This document shows, piece after piece, positions 55,317 to 60,141 of a stretch of DNA of 64,000 nucleotides (positions within the stretch are counted from its first letter, which is position 1; each line of letters opens with the position of its first letter). Position numbers and translations under genes: made by a program. Below the pieces are notes generated by a model. That model was given only the letters and a program-made list of their open reading frames with translations. It did not search any database and was not told where the DNA came from. The stretch comes from an uncultured bacterium (GTDB taxonomy: Bacteria > Oederibacteriota > JAAXVQ01): contig CAZSAP010000014.1 in NCBI GenBank assembly GCA_964604705.1, positions 1-64,000 on the forward strand, given 5' to 3'.

Positions 55317-55838
55317 TCACGTCCCTGCGGTAAACCCGATCTTCCTTTTCTTCGACGCTTCAGGCTCAGGGCGCAGGTCGTCGAGGACCTGAAACACTTC
55401 GTCTATTTGCCGATCATGTTTGAGTAACTTCACCTCATGCCGGTTAAGCCGCTCAAGTAGATGCCGTTGGCTCTCTTGACTGTTTCGCAACTGAATAAAC
55501 GCACGCATTATTTGAACGTTGACCATGATGGCTCGTTGACTTCTTAAAACGCTCGACAACATAGCCACTCCGGGTTCGAGAAAAACAAACGGCAAAAATC
55601 CGCCGAAACTTCGTTTGCTTGGTATCACACTTTGTGATACCAACGCTTCTGCTTCAGACTTAGCTAGTTGAAAAACGAAATCCTCAGGAAATCTGTGGGC
55701 ATTGCGTTTTACTTGCTGGCGTAGAGCAATGGCTTTAACCCCATACAGTTCTGCCAGGTCGCGGTCCAACATAACCTTCTGCCCGCGTATAAGATGGATT
55801 TTTCTTTCAATGCGTTCAACCGGGACTAGTTCCGACAT
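55317..55838 (-). CDS. ORF6N-domain protein (KilA-N-like DNA-binding, phage antirepressor-type), copy A
   Basis: MSELVPVERIERKIHLIRGQKVMLDRDLAELYGV...VKRN..RFPEDF...GVAMLSSVLRS..AI.VN matches ORF6N. The long N-terminal extension in the ORF track (VCNTPLRIRTKC...) is translation of the palindrome and a conserved leader, so the start is placed at MSELV. Confidence 0.75.
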   Translation of the reverse strand: MSELVPVERIERKIHLIRGQKVMLDRDLAELYGVKAIALRQQVKRNAHRFPEDFVFQLAKSEAEALVSQSVIPSKRSFGGFLPFVFLEPGVAMLSSVLRSQRAIMVNVQIMRAFIQLRNSQESQRHLLERLNRHEVKLLKHDRQIDEVFQVLDDLRPEPEASKKRKIGFTAGT

Positions 55839-55924
55839 ACTCACTCCTGATAGAGATTGGGTTTTTATTTGGACAGGAGTGTTGCGGAAAAATCGCAGGT
55901 AGAAGATACATTTTGTTCGTATTC

Positions 55925-55951
55925 GTAGGGGCGTATTGCATACGCCCCTAC
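55925..55951. repeat. Perfect 27-bp palindrome GTAGGGGCGTATTGCATACGCCCCTAC
   Basis: 12-bp stems with a 3-nt loop. Directly abuts the stop codon of ORF6N copy B. Confidence 0.75.
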
Positions 55952-56469
55952 ATGCCGATTTTAAACCCGATCTTCTTTTTCTTTGGCGCTTCCGGTTCAG
56001 GACGCAGGTCGTCGAGGACCTGAAACACTTCGTCCAGCTTGTGTTCATGCTGCATCAACTTCGTCTCGTGTTTGTTTAGCTGATTCAGCACAAACAGCTG
56101 AGCTCCTTGCTCAATACGGAGTTGAATAAAAATCCGTATTATCTGGATATTAACTTGTATGGCGCGCTCAGTGTTGAGGACACCGGATAACATCGCGACT
56201 CCACCTTCAGAAAACGCGTGAGGTAAATATTTACTATGTTCGCCACGCTTTAAGGTCACAAAATGTGACCTTAAAGCATTGAGTTCACTCAACACTAATT
56301 GGAACATGAAATCATCCGGAAAACGGTTCAAATTGCGCTTCACCGCTTGGTTGAATACTTTGGTTTCCACCCCATACAACTCAGCGAGGTCACGGTCCAG
56401 CATGACTTTTTGCCCGCGGATGAGGTAAATTTTTCGTTCAATGCGTTCAACCGGTACAAGTTCCGCCAC
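55948..56469 (-). CDS. ORF6N-domain protein, copy B
   Basis: MAELVPVERIERKIYLIRGQKVMLDRDLAELYGVETKVFNQAVKRNLNRFPDDFMFQL... ending PEPEAPKKKKIGFKIGM. Confidence 0.75.
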   Translation of the reverse strand: MAELVPVERIERKIYLIRGQKVMLDRDLAELYGVETKVFNQAVKRNLNRFPDDFMFQLVLSELNALRSHFVTLKRGEHSKYLPHAFSEGGVAMLSGVLNTERAIQVNIQIIRIFIQLRIEQGAQLFVLNQLNKHETKLMQHEHKLDEVFQVLDDLRPEPEAPKKKKIGFKIGM

Positions 56470-56655
56470 TGCAACTCCTGTACGAAATTATATTAATCAT
56501 TTCGACAGGAGTGTTGCGGAAAAATCGCGTGCGGGTGATGAATTATTATCAAAAGAGGGCAACCAATGTCTCAAGCCAATAGCTAATACAAATTTCTGTT
56601 GTTGAAATGAGGTGAGTGTATAGTTCCCCTATAAACCTAAAAAATCACAACGACA

Positions 56656-58575
56656 TTACTTACAGTACTCCGTGACTCGCTGGCAAAATTCTTCAATACC
56701 CATGAGTTTATCTTGCCAGATTTTTTTAATATCAATATCACAATGCTTGCACAACGCCTCTATTCTTTCCGCCTCTTCTTCCAACCCCCGATACTTATAA
56801 ACCTCAATCCGATTAGCCGTTGCCTGGCAAAAAAGTGTATAGGCTTCTTTGTCACGCTTCACAATCCGAACTACTTTTTCCGCTCGAACCCTCTGCATAT
56901 CCAAAACAGCATCACCCAACACCAAGCCTTTTAAAAAAATCTCCGCATCCGCTTCTTCTGCGCTCTCTTTTTTGGCTGCATCAATAATTTTACGCACTAA
57001 AACACTTTGTGCCCTGTTTAGAAGATCAAAACTCATATTGGCGTTTTCCAAGCGTGTTTGTTCTTTCACGTGCTCGCGGAGCTTGCCTTGAAATAAATCT
57101 GATAGAACATGTTCCTCTTCTTCCAGTTCCTTTAAAATCATTGTCATTTTCACTGAACTTTCTGAACTTTGTACATCCGGCAATGAGGCGAGGCGCGTGG
57201 CCAAGGTTGGATGGCTGTTAAATTCGTTTTCTTCCTCCACCATCGCCTTTTGGATATAGGTATCCAAGGTTTTCCGGTCTTTCTTCAATTGCGCTTGATA
57301 CTTTGTAAAAATATTTTTATTTTCCGAACCCAGTGTTGCATTGATCTCAGAAAAATGTTCCGAAATTTGTACGATCGTACGCAGCATGCTTTCCACATTT
57401 TTCTTTCCATAATGCTTTGCCGCAATCCAATCCGCCCGTAGTTCGCGGCTACGACTTAACATATTATCGATTGTGGCAAAGTAGGTTAAAAAAATCTGTA
57501 AAAACACATTGGGGATTAAGAGCAAAAGACTCAATGCCATGGCCCACATACTTCCCCCGCCACTCATTCCCGCAAGGTCCAAAATGGCAGAATGCAAACT
57601 CTTGTAAACCGGTACAACAAACCGACTGTACGCTGTATCATTGCCAGAGAAATGTGCAAACTCATGGGCCAATACAGCCTTAAACTCGGCCAAGGCAAGC
57701 TGTGGCAGCAGGGGGGCGCCTATGGCCAAGATGCGTTTATGCACCACACCATTAAGCGTTGCGACGCTTCCTTCGGTTACAAAAAAAGTGGGAGCAGCAT
57801 GAAGTATCACGGCATCCGGAAGTTTGGTCCCGACTTTCCAACATACATCCTGGATGGCCTCAATCAACTTCGTTTTTGTGTGGTAATCAACAACTACCGC
57901 CGTCTGCCTGGAGGGTTTATTGAAAAACACCGCTTTCACAGCACGAAAACTCGCCCATGCACTTACCAAAGGCGCGAACGCTATGGCGGCCAGAATGATC
58001 ACAGGAATTCTGGGTAGTTCCAACATCAAAGCTAAAACAAAAAGGGTAAGTCCCAGAGTCACGATCGAAGAAAGAAACAACGTTAGATAGGTCGCGGGTA
58101 CCGAGACCAACGATAGCAAAACCAATCCCCAGGATGTTTTAGGGTTCCGGTGGGTGACCTCCGACGCTGTTTTCTGCTTTATTTTTTTGGGAGTTGGAAT
58201 GGCCATCCATACTTTTATGGCACTGCACGCGCCCACTGCCATAAAACTAAAGGAGGCAACTGAAAATAACAACATAGGAAAGTTTTTATATCCATCGATG
58301 ACTTCCGTAACCAGAAACGCCAAAAGAAAAAGCACCATCATAACGGTTCCTGCTACCACCCGATAGCGTTGTCGGATCATCCACATACTAATAAACAAAC
58401 CCACTAAAATCCCTAGCCCATCAATCGTAAAAAGCCGATACGCAATAACCCCCAATCCCGTTCTTCCTGTAAGTTGGGAAACAATAAAGTCTTCGACAAT
58501 AGCGTAAAAAAAATATAAAAAAAGAAATCCGACTACAAACCGAGCCAGGTCTAAAACCACCATCATTTTTTTCAT
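56656..58575 (-). CDS. Membrane-bound M48-family zinc metallopeptidase (HtpX-like) with a ~250-aa C-terminal helical extension
   Basis: N-terminal TM cluster. HEXXH (LAHEFAHFSG), third-ligand motif RELRADWIAAKHYG, and C-terminal NSHPTLATRLASL (HtpX SHPxxxxRI). Followed by an acidic/coiled-coil ~250-aa tail ending in a CxxC...HCD cluster. About 40% GC. Confidence 0.8.
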   Translation of the reverse strand: MKKMMVVLDLARFVVGFLFLYFFYAIVEDFIVSQLTGRTGLGVIAYRLFTIDGLGILVGLFISMWMIRQRYRVVAGTVMMVLFLLAFLVTEVIDGYKNFPMLLFSVASFSFMAVGACSAIKVWMAIPTPKKIKQKTASEVTHRNPKTSWGLVLLSLVSVPATYLTLFLSSIVTLGLTLFVLALMLELPRIPVIILAAIAFAPLVSAWASFRAVKAVFFNKPSRQTAVVVDYHTKTKLIEAIQDVCWKVGTKLPDAVILHAAPTFFVTEGSVATLNGVVHKRILAIGAPLLPQLALAEFKAVLAHEFAHFSGNDTAYSRFVVPVYKSLHSAILDLAGMSGGGSMWAMALSLLLLIPNVFLQIFLTYFATIDNMLSRSRELRADWIAAKHYGKKNVESMLRTIVQISEHFSEINATLGSENKNIFTKYQAQLKKDRKTLDTYIQKAMVEEENEFNSHPTLATRLASLPDVQSSESSVKMTMILKELEEEEHVLSDLFQGKLREHVKEQTRLENANMSFDLLNRAQSVLVRKIIDAAKKESAEEADAEIFLKGLVLGDAVLDMQRVRAEKVVRIVKRDKEAYTLFCQATANRIEVYKYRGLEEEAERIEALCKHCDIDIKKIWQDKLMGIEEFCQRVTEYCK

Positions 58576-59472: not shown

Positions 59473-59501
59473 CAACCTACATCTGAACCCACTGCTTTTT
59501 T

Positions 59502-59525
59502 GGGGCGTATGCAATACGCCCCTAC
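59502..59525. repeat. Palindromic element copy (GGGGCGTATGCAATACGCCCCTAC)
   Basis: Abuts the stop codon of ORF6N copy C. Preceded by CCACTGCTTTTTT. Confidence 0.7.
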
Positions 59526-60028
59526 GACCCGATCTTCTTTTTCTTTGGCGTTTCCGGTTCAGGACGCAGCTCGTCGAGGACCTGAAACACTTCGTCCAGC
59601 TTGTGCTCATGCTGCATTAACTTCGTCTCGTGTTTGTTTAACTGGTTTAGCATAAAACCCTGCGGCCCCAGCTCAGCCCGCAAGGATATGAACCGGCGAA
59701 TGATTTGAATATTTACCTGAATGGCAGCTTCACTGTTGAGAACACTGGAGAGCATGGCGACACCATGTTCCGTGAATACATGCGGGAGATACCTTTGGCC
59801 ACCCCAACTTGAGGTCACAGTTTGTGACCTCAAGTCTGAAAACTCTTTAAACGTAAGGCGGAACATAAAGTCAGGTGGGAAACGGATACGATTACGTTTA
59901 ACAGCTTGGTTGAATACTTTGGTTTCCACCCCATACAACTCAGCAAGGTCACGGTCCAACATGACTTTCTGCCCGCGTATGAGATAAATTTTTCGTTCAA
60001 TGCGTTCAACCGGGACTAGTTCCGACAT
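59522..60028 (-). CDS. ORF6N-domain protein, copy C
   Basis: Near identical to copy B over the first ~50 aa. Ends PEPETPKKKKIGS. Start placed at MSELV (60026-60028). The same 85-bp leader (GACAGGAGTGTTGCGGAAAAATCGCAGGTAGAAGA) as copy A lies upstream. Confidence 0.75.
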   Translation of the reverse strand: MSELVPVERIERKIYLIRGQKVMLDRDLAELYGVETKVFNQAVKRNRIRFPPDFMFRLTFKEFSDLRSQTVTSSWGGQRYLPHVFTEHGVAMLSSVLNSEAAIQVNIQIIRRFISLRAELGPQGFMLNQLNKHETKLMQHEHKLDEVFQVLDELRPEPETPKKKKIGS

Positions 60029-60114
60029 ACTCACTCCTGATAGAGATTGGGTTTTTATTTGGACAGGAGTGTTGCGGAAAAATCGCAGGTAGAAGACACA
60101 TTTTGTTCGTATCC

Positions 60115-60141
60115 GTAGGGGCGTATTGCATACGCCCCTAC
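60115..60141. repeat. Perfect 27-bp palindrome GTAGGGGCGTATTGCATACGCCCCTAC
   Basis: Upstream of the ORF6N copy C leader. Confidence 0.75.

Follow-up and report, generated by a model that had tools for sequence, protein, structure and literature searches.

The question raised by the first 64,000 nucleotides of contig CAZSAP010000014.1 (assembly GCA_964604705.1, an uncultured bacterium of the Oederibacteriota; hereafter the window) is what relates three ORF6N genes (A, B and C), a decayed fourth copy (D) and several palindromes to one another and to the M48 peptidase and DUF3592 genes that they surround. The original prediction described a duplicated module, made of a leader, an ORF6N gene and a terminal palindrome. 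As first described, the locus largely corresponds to known kinds of elements: paralogues of the PDC-S05/ORF6N family, GTAG-tagged repetitive extragenic palindromic (REP) sequences, gene conversion and unrelated cargo genes. Its interest is raised by another palindrome, located inside the ORF6N genes and found family-wide. Overall, the locus is probably explained by ORF6N paralogues of the PDC-S05 type with a relic, REP-like repeats, gene conversion and unrelated cargo, together with an intragenic palindrome that would be bound by the ORF6N protein.

Each ORF6N copy contains a perfect inverted repeat of 25-31 bp with a 3-nt spacer, at codons ~63-73, built on a TCACA-N3-TGTGA core (Table 1). In the 64-kb window, this core is found only at the three intragenic sites. 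Between A and C, three compensatory changes in the palindrome alter the encoded peptide from LRSQTVTSS to LVSQSVIPS. In an AlphaFold model, the palindrome corresponds to a low-confidence loop (residues 68-82).

The same site was surveyed in 155 distinct ORF6N genes, which were taken from IMG/VR and from JGI metagenomes by means of peptide patterns outside the palindrome segment. The spacer is 3 nt long in 137 of them, and in 120 the longest hairpin of the gene is at the palindrome site. A perfect stem of at least 8 bp is present at the site in 61% of the genes, compared with 1.1% of synonymous-codon shuffles. In a MAFFT alignment, 86.6% of the cells are paired (70.9% in shuffles), double changes number 265 (89 in shuffles), and the covariation score is 0.365 against 0.142, a level reached by 0/500 shuffles; slid controls gave 0.04-0.09. 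One-sided intermediates are almost absent and the CA-N3-TG core is nearly invariant, with arm lengths ranging from 5 to 18 bp across the family, those of the perfect TCACA-N3-TGTGA palindromes being 9-18 bp. Moreover, codons covary by complementarity, as in the pairs AGG(R)/ACC(T) (44), AGA(R)/ATC(I) (9), TCA(S)/GTG(V) (77), TGC(C)/GGC(G) (10), TTC(F)/GGA(G) (7), TCG(S)/GCG(A) (6), TTG/TCA (65) and GGG/CCC (7). The core is also read in different frames, yielding LRSQIVTSS, ELVTNCDQL or VVENFDH, the latter two in distant members. These covarying pairs and the use of several reading frames argue that the palindrome itself is selected and dictates the amino acids of the loop. The selected object is thus the DNA (or RNA) palindrome, which the protein loop follows. 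The comparison of the genes thus shows a palindrome that is, as judged from its covariation, kept at the DNA level across the whole ORF6N family. This is a clear case of a nucleic-acid constraint overriding a conserved protein motif, in which base complementarity accounts for the pairs Ser/Val, Cys/Gly, Phe/Gly and Arg(AGA)/Ile, and it matters wherever dN/dS (the ratio of nonsynonymous to synonymous changes) or conservation in the ORF6N domain is read as a protein-level signal. Literature searches, including KilA-N combined with "palindrome", and Rfam returned no description of such an intragenic palindrome.

The nature of the constrained nucleic acid can be approached from the mismatches in the stem, among which A.C is at least as common as G.T. 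An RNA-type wobble test on the stem gave no sign of a sense-strand RNA helix. Because G-U intermediates are few, and in view of the 3-nt spacer, we lean towards a DNA-level element. Among 147 ORF6N loci, the site lies at +200..250 in 84 cases, at -150..0 in 30 and just after the stop codon in 6, and it is found almost nowhere else in ~0.4 Mb of flanks. The free-standing upstream copies precede the ORF6N gene by 30-150 nt, the copy of locus L240 lying 30 nt before the ATG (loci other than the window are designated by L and a number). In L177, a free-standing palindrome is located between an integrase gene and the ORF6N gene, and on a Legionella plasmid identical arms are found inside the ORF6N gene and 6 nt after it.

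What might this palindrome do? It can be proposed that the ORF6N unit, ~0.7-0.8 kb in length, is self-contained and has three parts, a leader, a coding sequence and the intragenic palindrome. An anti-Shine-Dalgarno (anti-SD) stretch of the leader would pair with the ribosome-binding site and keep translation low. The coding sequence would specify a winged-helix-like N-domain, a long helix by which the protein probably dimerises as a coiled coil, and a basic tail. The palindrome in codons ~63-73 would then be the binding site of the dimeric ORF6N protein itself, serving either autoregulation or self-marking of the DNA. Within the overall explanation, such binding is the mechanism that we regard as most likely, tentatively and at somewhat under an even chance. 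A little more guardedly still, it is conceivable that ORF6N forms a "self-marked" family, in which a T..CA-N3-TG..A palindrome is selected in thousands of genes across phyla as the binding (or recombination) site of ORF6N.

The protein part of this proposal is drawn from profile matches and from the structural model. The announced three ORF6N genes are indeed present, all on the minus strand (PF10543, E 3e-28 to 3e-36). Their scores against this profile of the KilA-N superfamily are 98.6-124 bits for a gathering cut-off of 27.8, covering positions 2-86 of 86. The fourth copy, predicted to survive as its last ~17 codons, likewise exists as relic D, with its palindrome. Amino-acid identity is 63% for A/B, 63% for A/C and 78-79% for B/C. 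The AlphaFold model (mean pLDDT, the predicted local distance difference test, of 79) has a compact N-domain and a long helix at residues 100-154. Its nearest folds are winged-helix-type Ski/Dachshund domains, with weak matches (probability 0.5-0.8, E > 0.3), and searches of the PDB by sequence and by fold gave zero significant matches. That ORF6N is a dimeric DNA-binding protein is a reasonable inference, the evidence for DNA binding being indirect, namely this weak winged-helix-like resemblance and the palindromes associated with the gene. In addition, the N-domains match PHROG "anti-repressor" families (PHROG 4792 and others; E 6e-23 to 6e-31).

The defence flavour ascribed to these genes in the original prediction finds support in PADLOC. 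A, B and C match model PDLC04856 (PDC-S05) over its full length (positions 6-176 of 177; E 1.9e-50 to 1.7e-56) and are, on these profile matches, members of this candidate single-gene anti-phage family. One PDC-S05 gene is reported to have lowered the plating of phages T7 and T5 ~1000-fold; the product of this gene, a RhuM-type member reported to protect Escherichia coli and to be active against T7, T5 and T4, has a Virulence_RhuM domain (preprint, bioRxiv 10.1101/2024.09.26.614923). The window resembles PDC-S05 settings by this end-to-end match to the 177-position model and by its variable, low-GC island (GC, guanine plus cytosine), but it differs in having not one gene but three paralogues plus a relic. 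Phage anti-repressors and the KilA-N and Bro-N regulators share the homologous N-terminal ORF6N domain; the phage proteins are, however, longer (profiles of 232-431 positions) and have other C-terminal parts, whereas the window genes are chromosomal, with no prophage genes around. GenBank phage records with an ORF6N relative number only 5. The family itself is very large, since 7999 of 8000 candidates scored at E <= 1e-10. One of its members occurs on a minimal plasmid of Segatella copri (NZ_CP152354.1, L290; 2955 bp), where Rep, a replication initiator, and an ORF6N protein with the palindrome inside its gene are the sole products encoded. From this plasmid, it may be suggested that part of the family serves in plasmid maintenance or in regulation.

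As to the leaders, CACUCCUG of A and C pairs with CAGGAGUG, which is the SD region. In the leader of the relative L001, AUACCUGUCU pairs with GGGCAGGUGU, and the leader of L289 is a B-like version. The predicted SD-sequestering helix is kept in A, B, C and L001 despite sequence changes, hence a translational restraint is suggested. With five sequences and modest z-scores, the folds suggest that the leaders sequester the ribosome-binding site and hold translation low, which would place a regulator that is possibly toxic under tight translational control. The 85-bp leader attributed to all three copies is found in A and C, whereas B retains only a ~30-nt core, ATTTSGACAGGAGTGTTGCGGAAAAATCGC. A scan for sigma-70 promoters gave a good match upstream of B only, and an Rfam scan of 43-64 kb gave zero relevant matches at E <= 1 for the leader, the REP or the intragenic hairpin.

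Binding sites located inside the gene of the binding protein or inside a regulated gene have precedents in parS within spo0J/parB, lac O2 and gal OI. As in these cases, the ORF6N site is palindromic, lies inside a coding sequence and has extra copies near the promoter or after the gene. Unlike them, its arms are longer, perfectly complementary and covarying, the site overrides the protein sequence family-wide, and binding is putative. Several observations weigh against the proposal. The perfect arms reach 16-18 bp, longer than a small dimer needs. The core variants of internal and flanking sites sometimes differ within one locus (L251, L255, L156), a single set of closely related gut elements accounts for 20 of the 30 upstream sites, and in the window the flanks of A, B and C contain no TCACA-type site. 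Other parts of the overall explanation meet difficulties too. The defence role is that of a candidate family, whose one assayed member carries an extra RhuM domain lacking in A, B and C (168-173 aa); the fold z-scores of the A and C leaders are modest (-1.8 and -2.2); and no gene for a REP-associated tyrosine transposase (RAYT, a Y1 transposase) was found by tblastn with the Y1_Tnp query of L001 in the window or in 118 loci carrying the REP, such a gene being usually single-copy and possibly located elsewhere.

Rather than an operator, the intragenic palindrome could be a recombination site, att- or dif-like or a hairpin hotspot, serving to exchange or displace the 3' portion of ORF6N genes. 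This is unlikely in our opinion. Its 14-3-14 layout recalls symmetric recombinase sites, but a 3-nt spacer is short for the overlap region of a tyrosine recombinase. The 5'-truncated ORF6N relics that start at or near the palindrome and are stacked downstream of intact genes (L244, L270, L001) would fit such exchanges; the mosaic breakpoints of A, B and C are, however, at codons ~13-42 and not at the palindrome (codon ~65), and a breakpoint scan over 143 ORF6N genes gave 2 informative (discordant) pairs only, neither of them at the palindrome. Similarly, the 3' two-thirds of the ORF6N gene of the Legionella plasmid are bracketed by identical palindromes, and in one element group the free-standing palindrome follows the end of a tyrosine-integrase gene (L177), while most ORF6N genes have no adjoining recombinase.

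An explanation that we find less probable again is that the palindrome is functionless, kept perfect by a mutational bias, namely template-switch correction of quasi-palindromes, in a loop that tolerates change. The near absence of one-sided or G-T intermediates, the variable arm lengths (5 to 18 bp) and the low model confidence of the encoded loop are what this bias would produce. It does not readily account for a position kept in phyla very distant from one another, where the site is read in three frames and yields different peptides, nor for the nearly invariant CA-N3-TG core and the confinement of free-standing palindromes to ORF6N flanks. A signal in the form of a single-stranded or cruciform hairpin is a further alternative. 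If the palindrome is instead the site of the ORF6N protein, as we favour, it would be the first DNA target for a large candidate anti-phage family, and it provides a concrete, testable candidate target for a very large uncharacterised protein family. Binding would also suggest that ORF6N proteins act on DNA bearing the same mark, for instance the ORF6N-type genes of incoming phages and mobile elements.

The palindrome of the 3' ends is GTAG-GGGCGTAT-TGC-ATACGCCCC, present in 11 copies in the window where 0 are expected by chance. All copies lie within kb 43-60 (starts at 43329, 44802, 45351, 46639, 49888, 50136, 55161, 55928, 58809, 59502 and 60118), 6 of the 11 away from any ORF6N gene. Their form is GTAGGGGCGTATTGCATACGCCCC(TAC), with a GC-rich stem of 9-12 bp, a 3-nt loop and a GTAG head. 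The view that this palindrome ends all ORF6N genes is correct for B, C and D, in which it overlaps the stop codon, but not for A, which ends with its own TGA, the REP being 136 nt downstream. Nearly always headed by GTA(G), the 21-mer GGGGCGTAT-NNN-ATACGCCCC was found in at least 118 stretches of genomic DNA (loci L005-L122), of Bacteroidales, Ignavibacteria, Desulfobacterales, cyanobacteria, Chloroflexi, Omnitrophota, Pasteurellaceae and other groups. An ORF6N gene is near the REP in 1 of these 118 loci, and the REP is present in 1 of 162 ORF6N loci, that of the close relative L289. From its form and distribution, the 3' palindrome is a dispersed GTAG-tagged REP-like repeat and not a part of ORF6N; "REP-like" is said on form alone, because the RAYT search of the window and of the REP loci came out empty. 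The suggestion of a duplicated "ORF6N plus palindrome" module therefore stands for the recombining, duplicated paralogues, which show mosaic identity, and fails for the palindrome, which is not specific to ORF6N. An Ignavibacteriaceae locus (L014) has 12 copies of the 21-mer in 8 kb.

GTAG-tagged REPs sit downstream of genes and donate TAG stop codons (Di Nocera 2013, PMC3733652). B, C and D show precisely such a junction. The window repeats resemble such REPs, and the RAYT-associated bacterial interspersed mosaic elements (BIMEs), by their GTAG head, their 9-12 bp GC-rich stem, the multiple extragenic copies seen within the 64 kb of the window, their doublets and composites and the TAG stops they donate (PMC3733652). 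They differ in that the 21-mer spans very many phyla, which is unusual for REPs, in the failure to find a RAYT gene in the window or REP loci, and in the confinement of the window copies to the 43-60 kb accessory part, with a ~80-nt tail ending just before the next gene. A 21-mer common to many phyla is unexpected and of interest for REP/RAYT research; literature searches on the REP sequence gave nothing relevant. Subsets of the copies share flanks, namely a degenerate second REP upstream and the ~80-nt tail. The tail (…GCAGTGGGTTCAGACGTAGGTTGGCGGATAAGGA…CAAAGTTGACACCGT…) is found after the REP at 55090-55160, 59420-59501, 49813-49887, 58780-58808 and L289:1290-1373. Three unrelated genes (DUF3592, DUF285 and the gene at 49798) have their start codon 15-40 nt beyond the end of the tail, which may be a mobile 5' untranslated region or promoter piece. 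The REPs do not look like intrinsic terminators: on the gene strand, an A-run comes after the REPs at C and D and after the one downstream of A; on the opposite strand, it is a T-run that precedes the stem. A terminator scan gave nothing at the REPs. Elsewhere in the window, a ~450-nt direct repeat (43334-43775 and 44843-45304, 78.6% identity), each copy of which starts at a REP, brackets a gene for an S-adenosylmethionine (SAM) methyltransferase (43888-44745); a radical-SAM gene (45568-46599), itself bracketed by REPs, comes next.

How did the copies arise? In A and C, the upstream REP and leader are identical at 111 of 113 positions and the first 37 nt of the coding sequence at 96%, after which identity falls to 40-60% in mid-gene. 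In B and C, identity is at least 90% over codons 1-42 and 93-100% over the last ~120 nt, and 46-70% between. Overall, DNA divergence among the copies is 24-32%, with higher values in the centres. Saturated centres together with unsaturated ends argue for gene conversion or recombination between old ORF6N paralogues, and these identity profiles, with near-identical ends and old divergent centres, indicate as much. The variation is concentrated in the centre (codons ~43-132), and conservation is highest in the last ~36 codons, contrary to the suggestion that the C-terminal coiled coil would be the variable region. The REP is found at the module joints, between an ORF6N 3' end and the next leader or ~80-nt tail, and the B/A junction is repeated upstream of C, which suggests that tandem ORF6N-REP-ORF6N arrays came first and were interrupted later. 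The copy pattern would result from duplication and recombination at REPs, with later gene conversion evening the ends while the centres stayed divergent. Tandem ORF6N pairs are also found in L229, L236, L244 and L267, and relics in L001, L244 and L270; such pairs and relics in other genomes show that turnover of this kind is usual in the family. In L289, from another metagenome, the A-type unit is found again in full behind a glyoxalase gene, with leader, coding sequence, 3' region, REP and tail (818 nt, 70.5% identity). The relics are located at L001:6037-6175, L001:8930-9060, L244:2108-2494 and about 2030-2090 in L270. Several of them, truncated at the 5' side, begin at or near the intragenic palindrome and are stacked downstream of an intact gene, much like "orphan" 3' modules after displacement.

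Three other accounts of the locus have to be considered. The ORF6N unit might be an actively mobile cassette, namely cargo between the inverted REPs of a REPIN-like doublet, with a RAYT-type transposase moving it. Inverted REPs with 23-25 nt of perfect complementarity do flank A and C (740 and 587 nt apart), the recurrence of the A-type unit in L289 and the ORF6N 3'-end relics of the window and of L001 would agree with mobility, but the upstream REP is missing in L289 and in B, 161 of 162 other ORF6N loci have no REP, a Y1/RAYT gene was not found in the window or REP loci, and unrelated genes are also flanked by REPs and tails. We thus regard such a cassette as rather improbable. Another account, that of the original prediction, unites the ORF6N copies, the M48 protease and the DUF3592 protein in one functional, defence-like system. 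Both neighbours are present as it described (Pfam), the three kinds of genes are co-oriented, closely spaced and of similarly low GC, and relatives of the M48 gene occur in islands with resolvase, integrase, AbiEii and HEPN_AbiU2 genes. However, REPs and a gene relic stand between these genes, and the conservation expected of such a neighbourhood was not found. The M48 protein belongs to a rare family with ~40 relatives. Three independent contexts of this family, with resolvase, integrase, HEPN_AbiU2, AbiEii and PD-(D/E)XK genes as neighbours, contain neither ORF6N nor an adjacent DUF3592 gene (0/3); tblastn for DUF3592 in these contexts gave a single weak match, 5.6 kb away (E 0.022). The M48 and DUF3592 proteins have zero PADLOC or PHROG matches, and the close ORF6N relatives are single among unrelated genes, with OmpA and cupin genes in L001 and after the glyoxalase gene in L289, 0 of them with an M48-DUF3592 pair. 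The joint system is therefore very improbable, and the M48 and DUF3592 genes are best read as neighbouring island cargo. Finally, an assembly duplication can practically be dismissed as the source of the repeats, because the copies are too different (24-32% in DNA) and because the independent Logan contig L288 is 100% identical to window positions 57797-59600; it breaks where a near-identical repeat begins.

An integron gene cassette array was also rejected, as no integrase was found among the island open reading frames, attC features are lacking and gene orientation is mixed. Integron cassettes likewise are short genes parted by palindromic repeats, but the window palindrome is a perfect 27-mer without GTTRRRY core sites. 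attC sites have an R/L box layout (R''-L''/L'-R') and extrahelical bases, and the window palindrome has neither.

Table 1. Features of the ORF6N region, with positions in the 64,000-nt window.
Feature	Position	Strand	Remarks
Composite element downstream of A: degenerate REP', REP (55161-55184), tail	55090..55229	-	homologous to 49813-49956 and L289:1221-1373
ORF6N gene A	55317..55838	-	173 aa, own TGA stop; Pfam ORF6N E 2.6e-28; PADLOC PDC-S05 E 1.9e-50
Intragenic perfect palindrome of A	55619..55643	.	TTGGTATCACA-ctt-TGTGATACCAA, 11-bp arms; three compensatory changes relative to C
Leader of A	55839..55924	-	predicted anti-SD helix, 55874-55881 pairing with 55842-55849 (CACUCCUG/CAGGAGUG)
GTAG REP, contains TAG stop of B and precedes leader of A	55925..55951	.	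12-bp stem, 3-nt loop
ORF6N gene B	55948..56469	-	173 aa, GTG start, TAG stop inside REP; Pfam ORF6N E 2.8e-33; PDC-S05 E 1.7e-56
Intragenic perfect palindrome of B	56247..56277	.	14-bp arms
Leader of B	56470..56574	-	longer predicted SD-sequestering hairpin, 56499-56512 pairing with 56474-56488, z -3.7; sigma-70-like promoter match 56574-56545
M48 membrane metallopeptidase, neighbouring cargo	56656..58575	-	639 aa; Pfam M48 E 5.5e-14
Degenerate REP and start of tail, attached to relic D	58780..58832	-	
Relic D, last ~17 codons of a fourth ORF6N copy	58830..58880	-	joined to a REP in exactly the way seen for B and C; 88.5% identity with B 3' end (61 nt)
DUF3592 protein, neighbouring cargo	58907..59395	-	162 aa; Pfam DUF3592 E 4.6e-8
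REP (59502-59525, TAG stop of C) and ~80-nt conserved tail	59420..59525	-	ends just before DUF3592 start codon
ORF6N gene C	59522..60028	-	168 aa, TAG stop inside REP; Pfam ORF6N E 3e-36; PDC-S05 E 7.5e-56
Intragenic perfect palindrome of C	59807..59835	.	13-bp arms
Leader of C	60029..60114	-	98% identical to leader of A; predicted anti-SD helix, 60064-60071 pairing with 60032-60039
GTAG REP upstream of leader of C	60115..60141	.	identical to B/A junction

Along the minus strand, the order is a 966-aa gene, REP, leader, ORF6N C, REP with tail, DUF3592, relic D with REP, M48, leader, ORF6N B, REP, leader, ORF6N A, the 3' region with REP and tail, and a DUF285 gene. GC is 0.38-0.445 at 48-60 kb, compared with 0.50-0.66 elsewhere in the window, and the low-GC part adjoins mfd. 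The region is part of a low-GC, repeat-rich accessory island, in which cargo genes are interspersed among ORF6N paralogues.

Further genes and repeats of the window may be mentioned. The 781-aa DUF285 protein (52714-55059) is made of ~25-aa repeats (72-75 nt) and ends with a type IX secretion system (T9SS) sorting domain (Por_Secre_tail), as does a 500-aa protein (50224-51726); a macro-domain gene (51855-52475) lies between the two. The two sorting domains hint at a host of the Bacteroidota/FCB group. The 966-aa protein (60233-63133) has a Gly-rich N-terminal region with GGxGGxG runs and a long helical C-terminal part, and zero matches in Pfam, NCBIfam or PADLOC. Upstream of its gene, two paralogous proteins of 111/112 aa (63182-63517 and 63560-63898) likewise have no matches. 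After the 966-aa gene, a second repeated hairpin, GGGACGGTTTTCGGATAAT…ATTGTCCGAAAACCGTCCC, with 19-bp arms, is found at 60160-60223, and an inverted copy of it, with 81% identity, at 48710-48767. Far from the ORF6N genes, two adjacent genes of ~940 aa (15954-18754 and 18806-21540) are tandem paralogues with 78% DNA identity over 2.8 kb, and positions 1-984 are internally repetitive, with self-matches at ~147-nt offsets and multiples thereof (72-80% identity).

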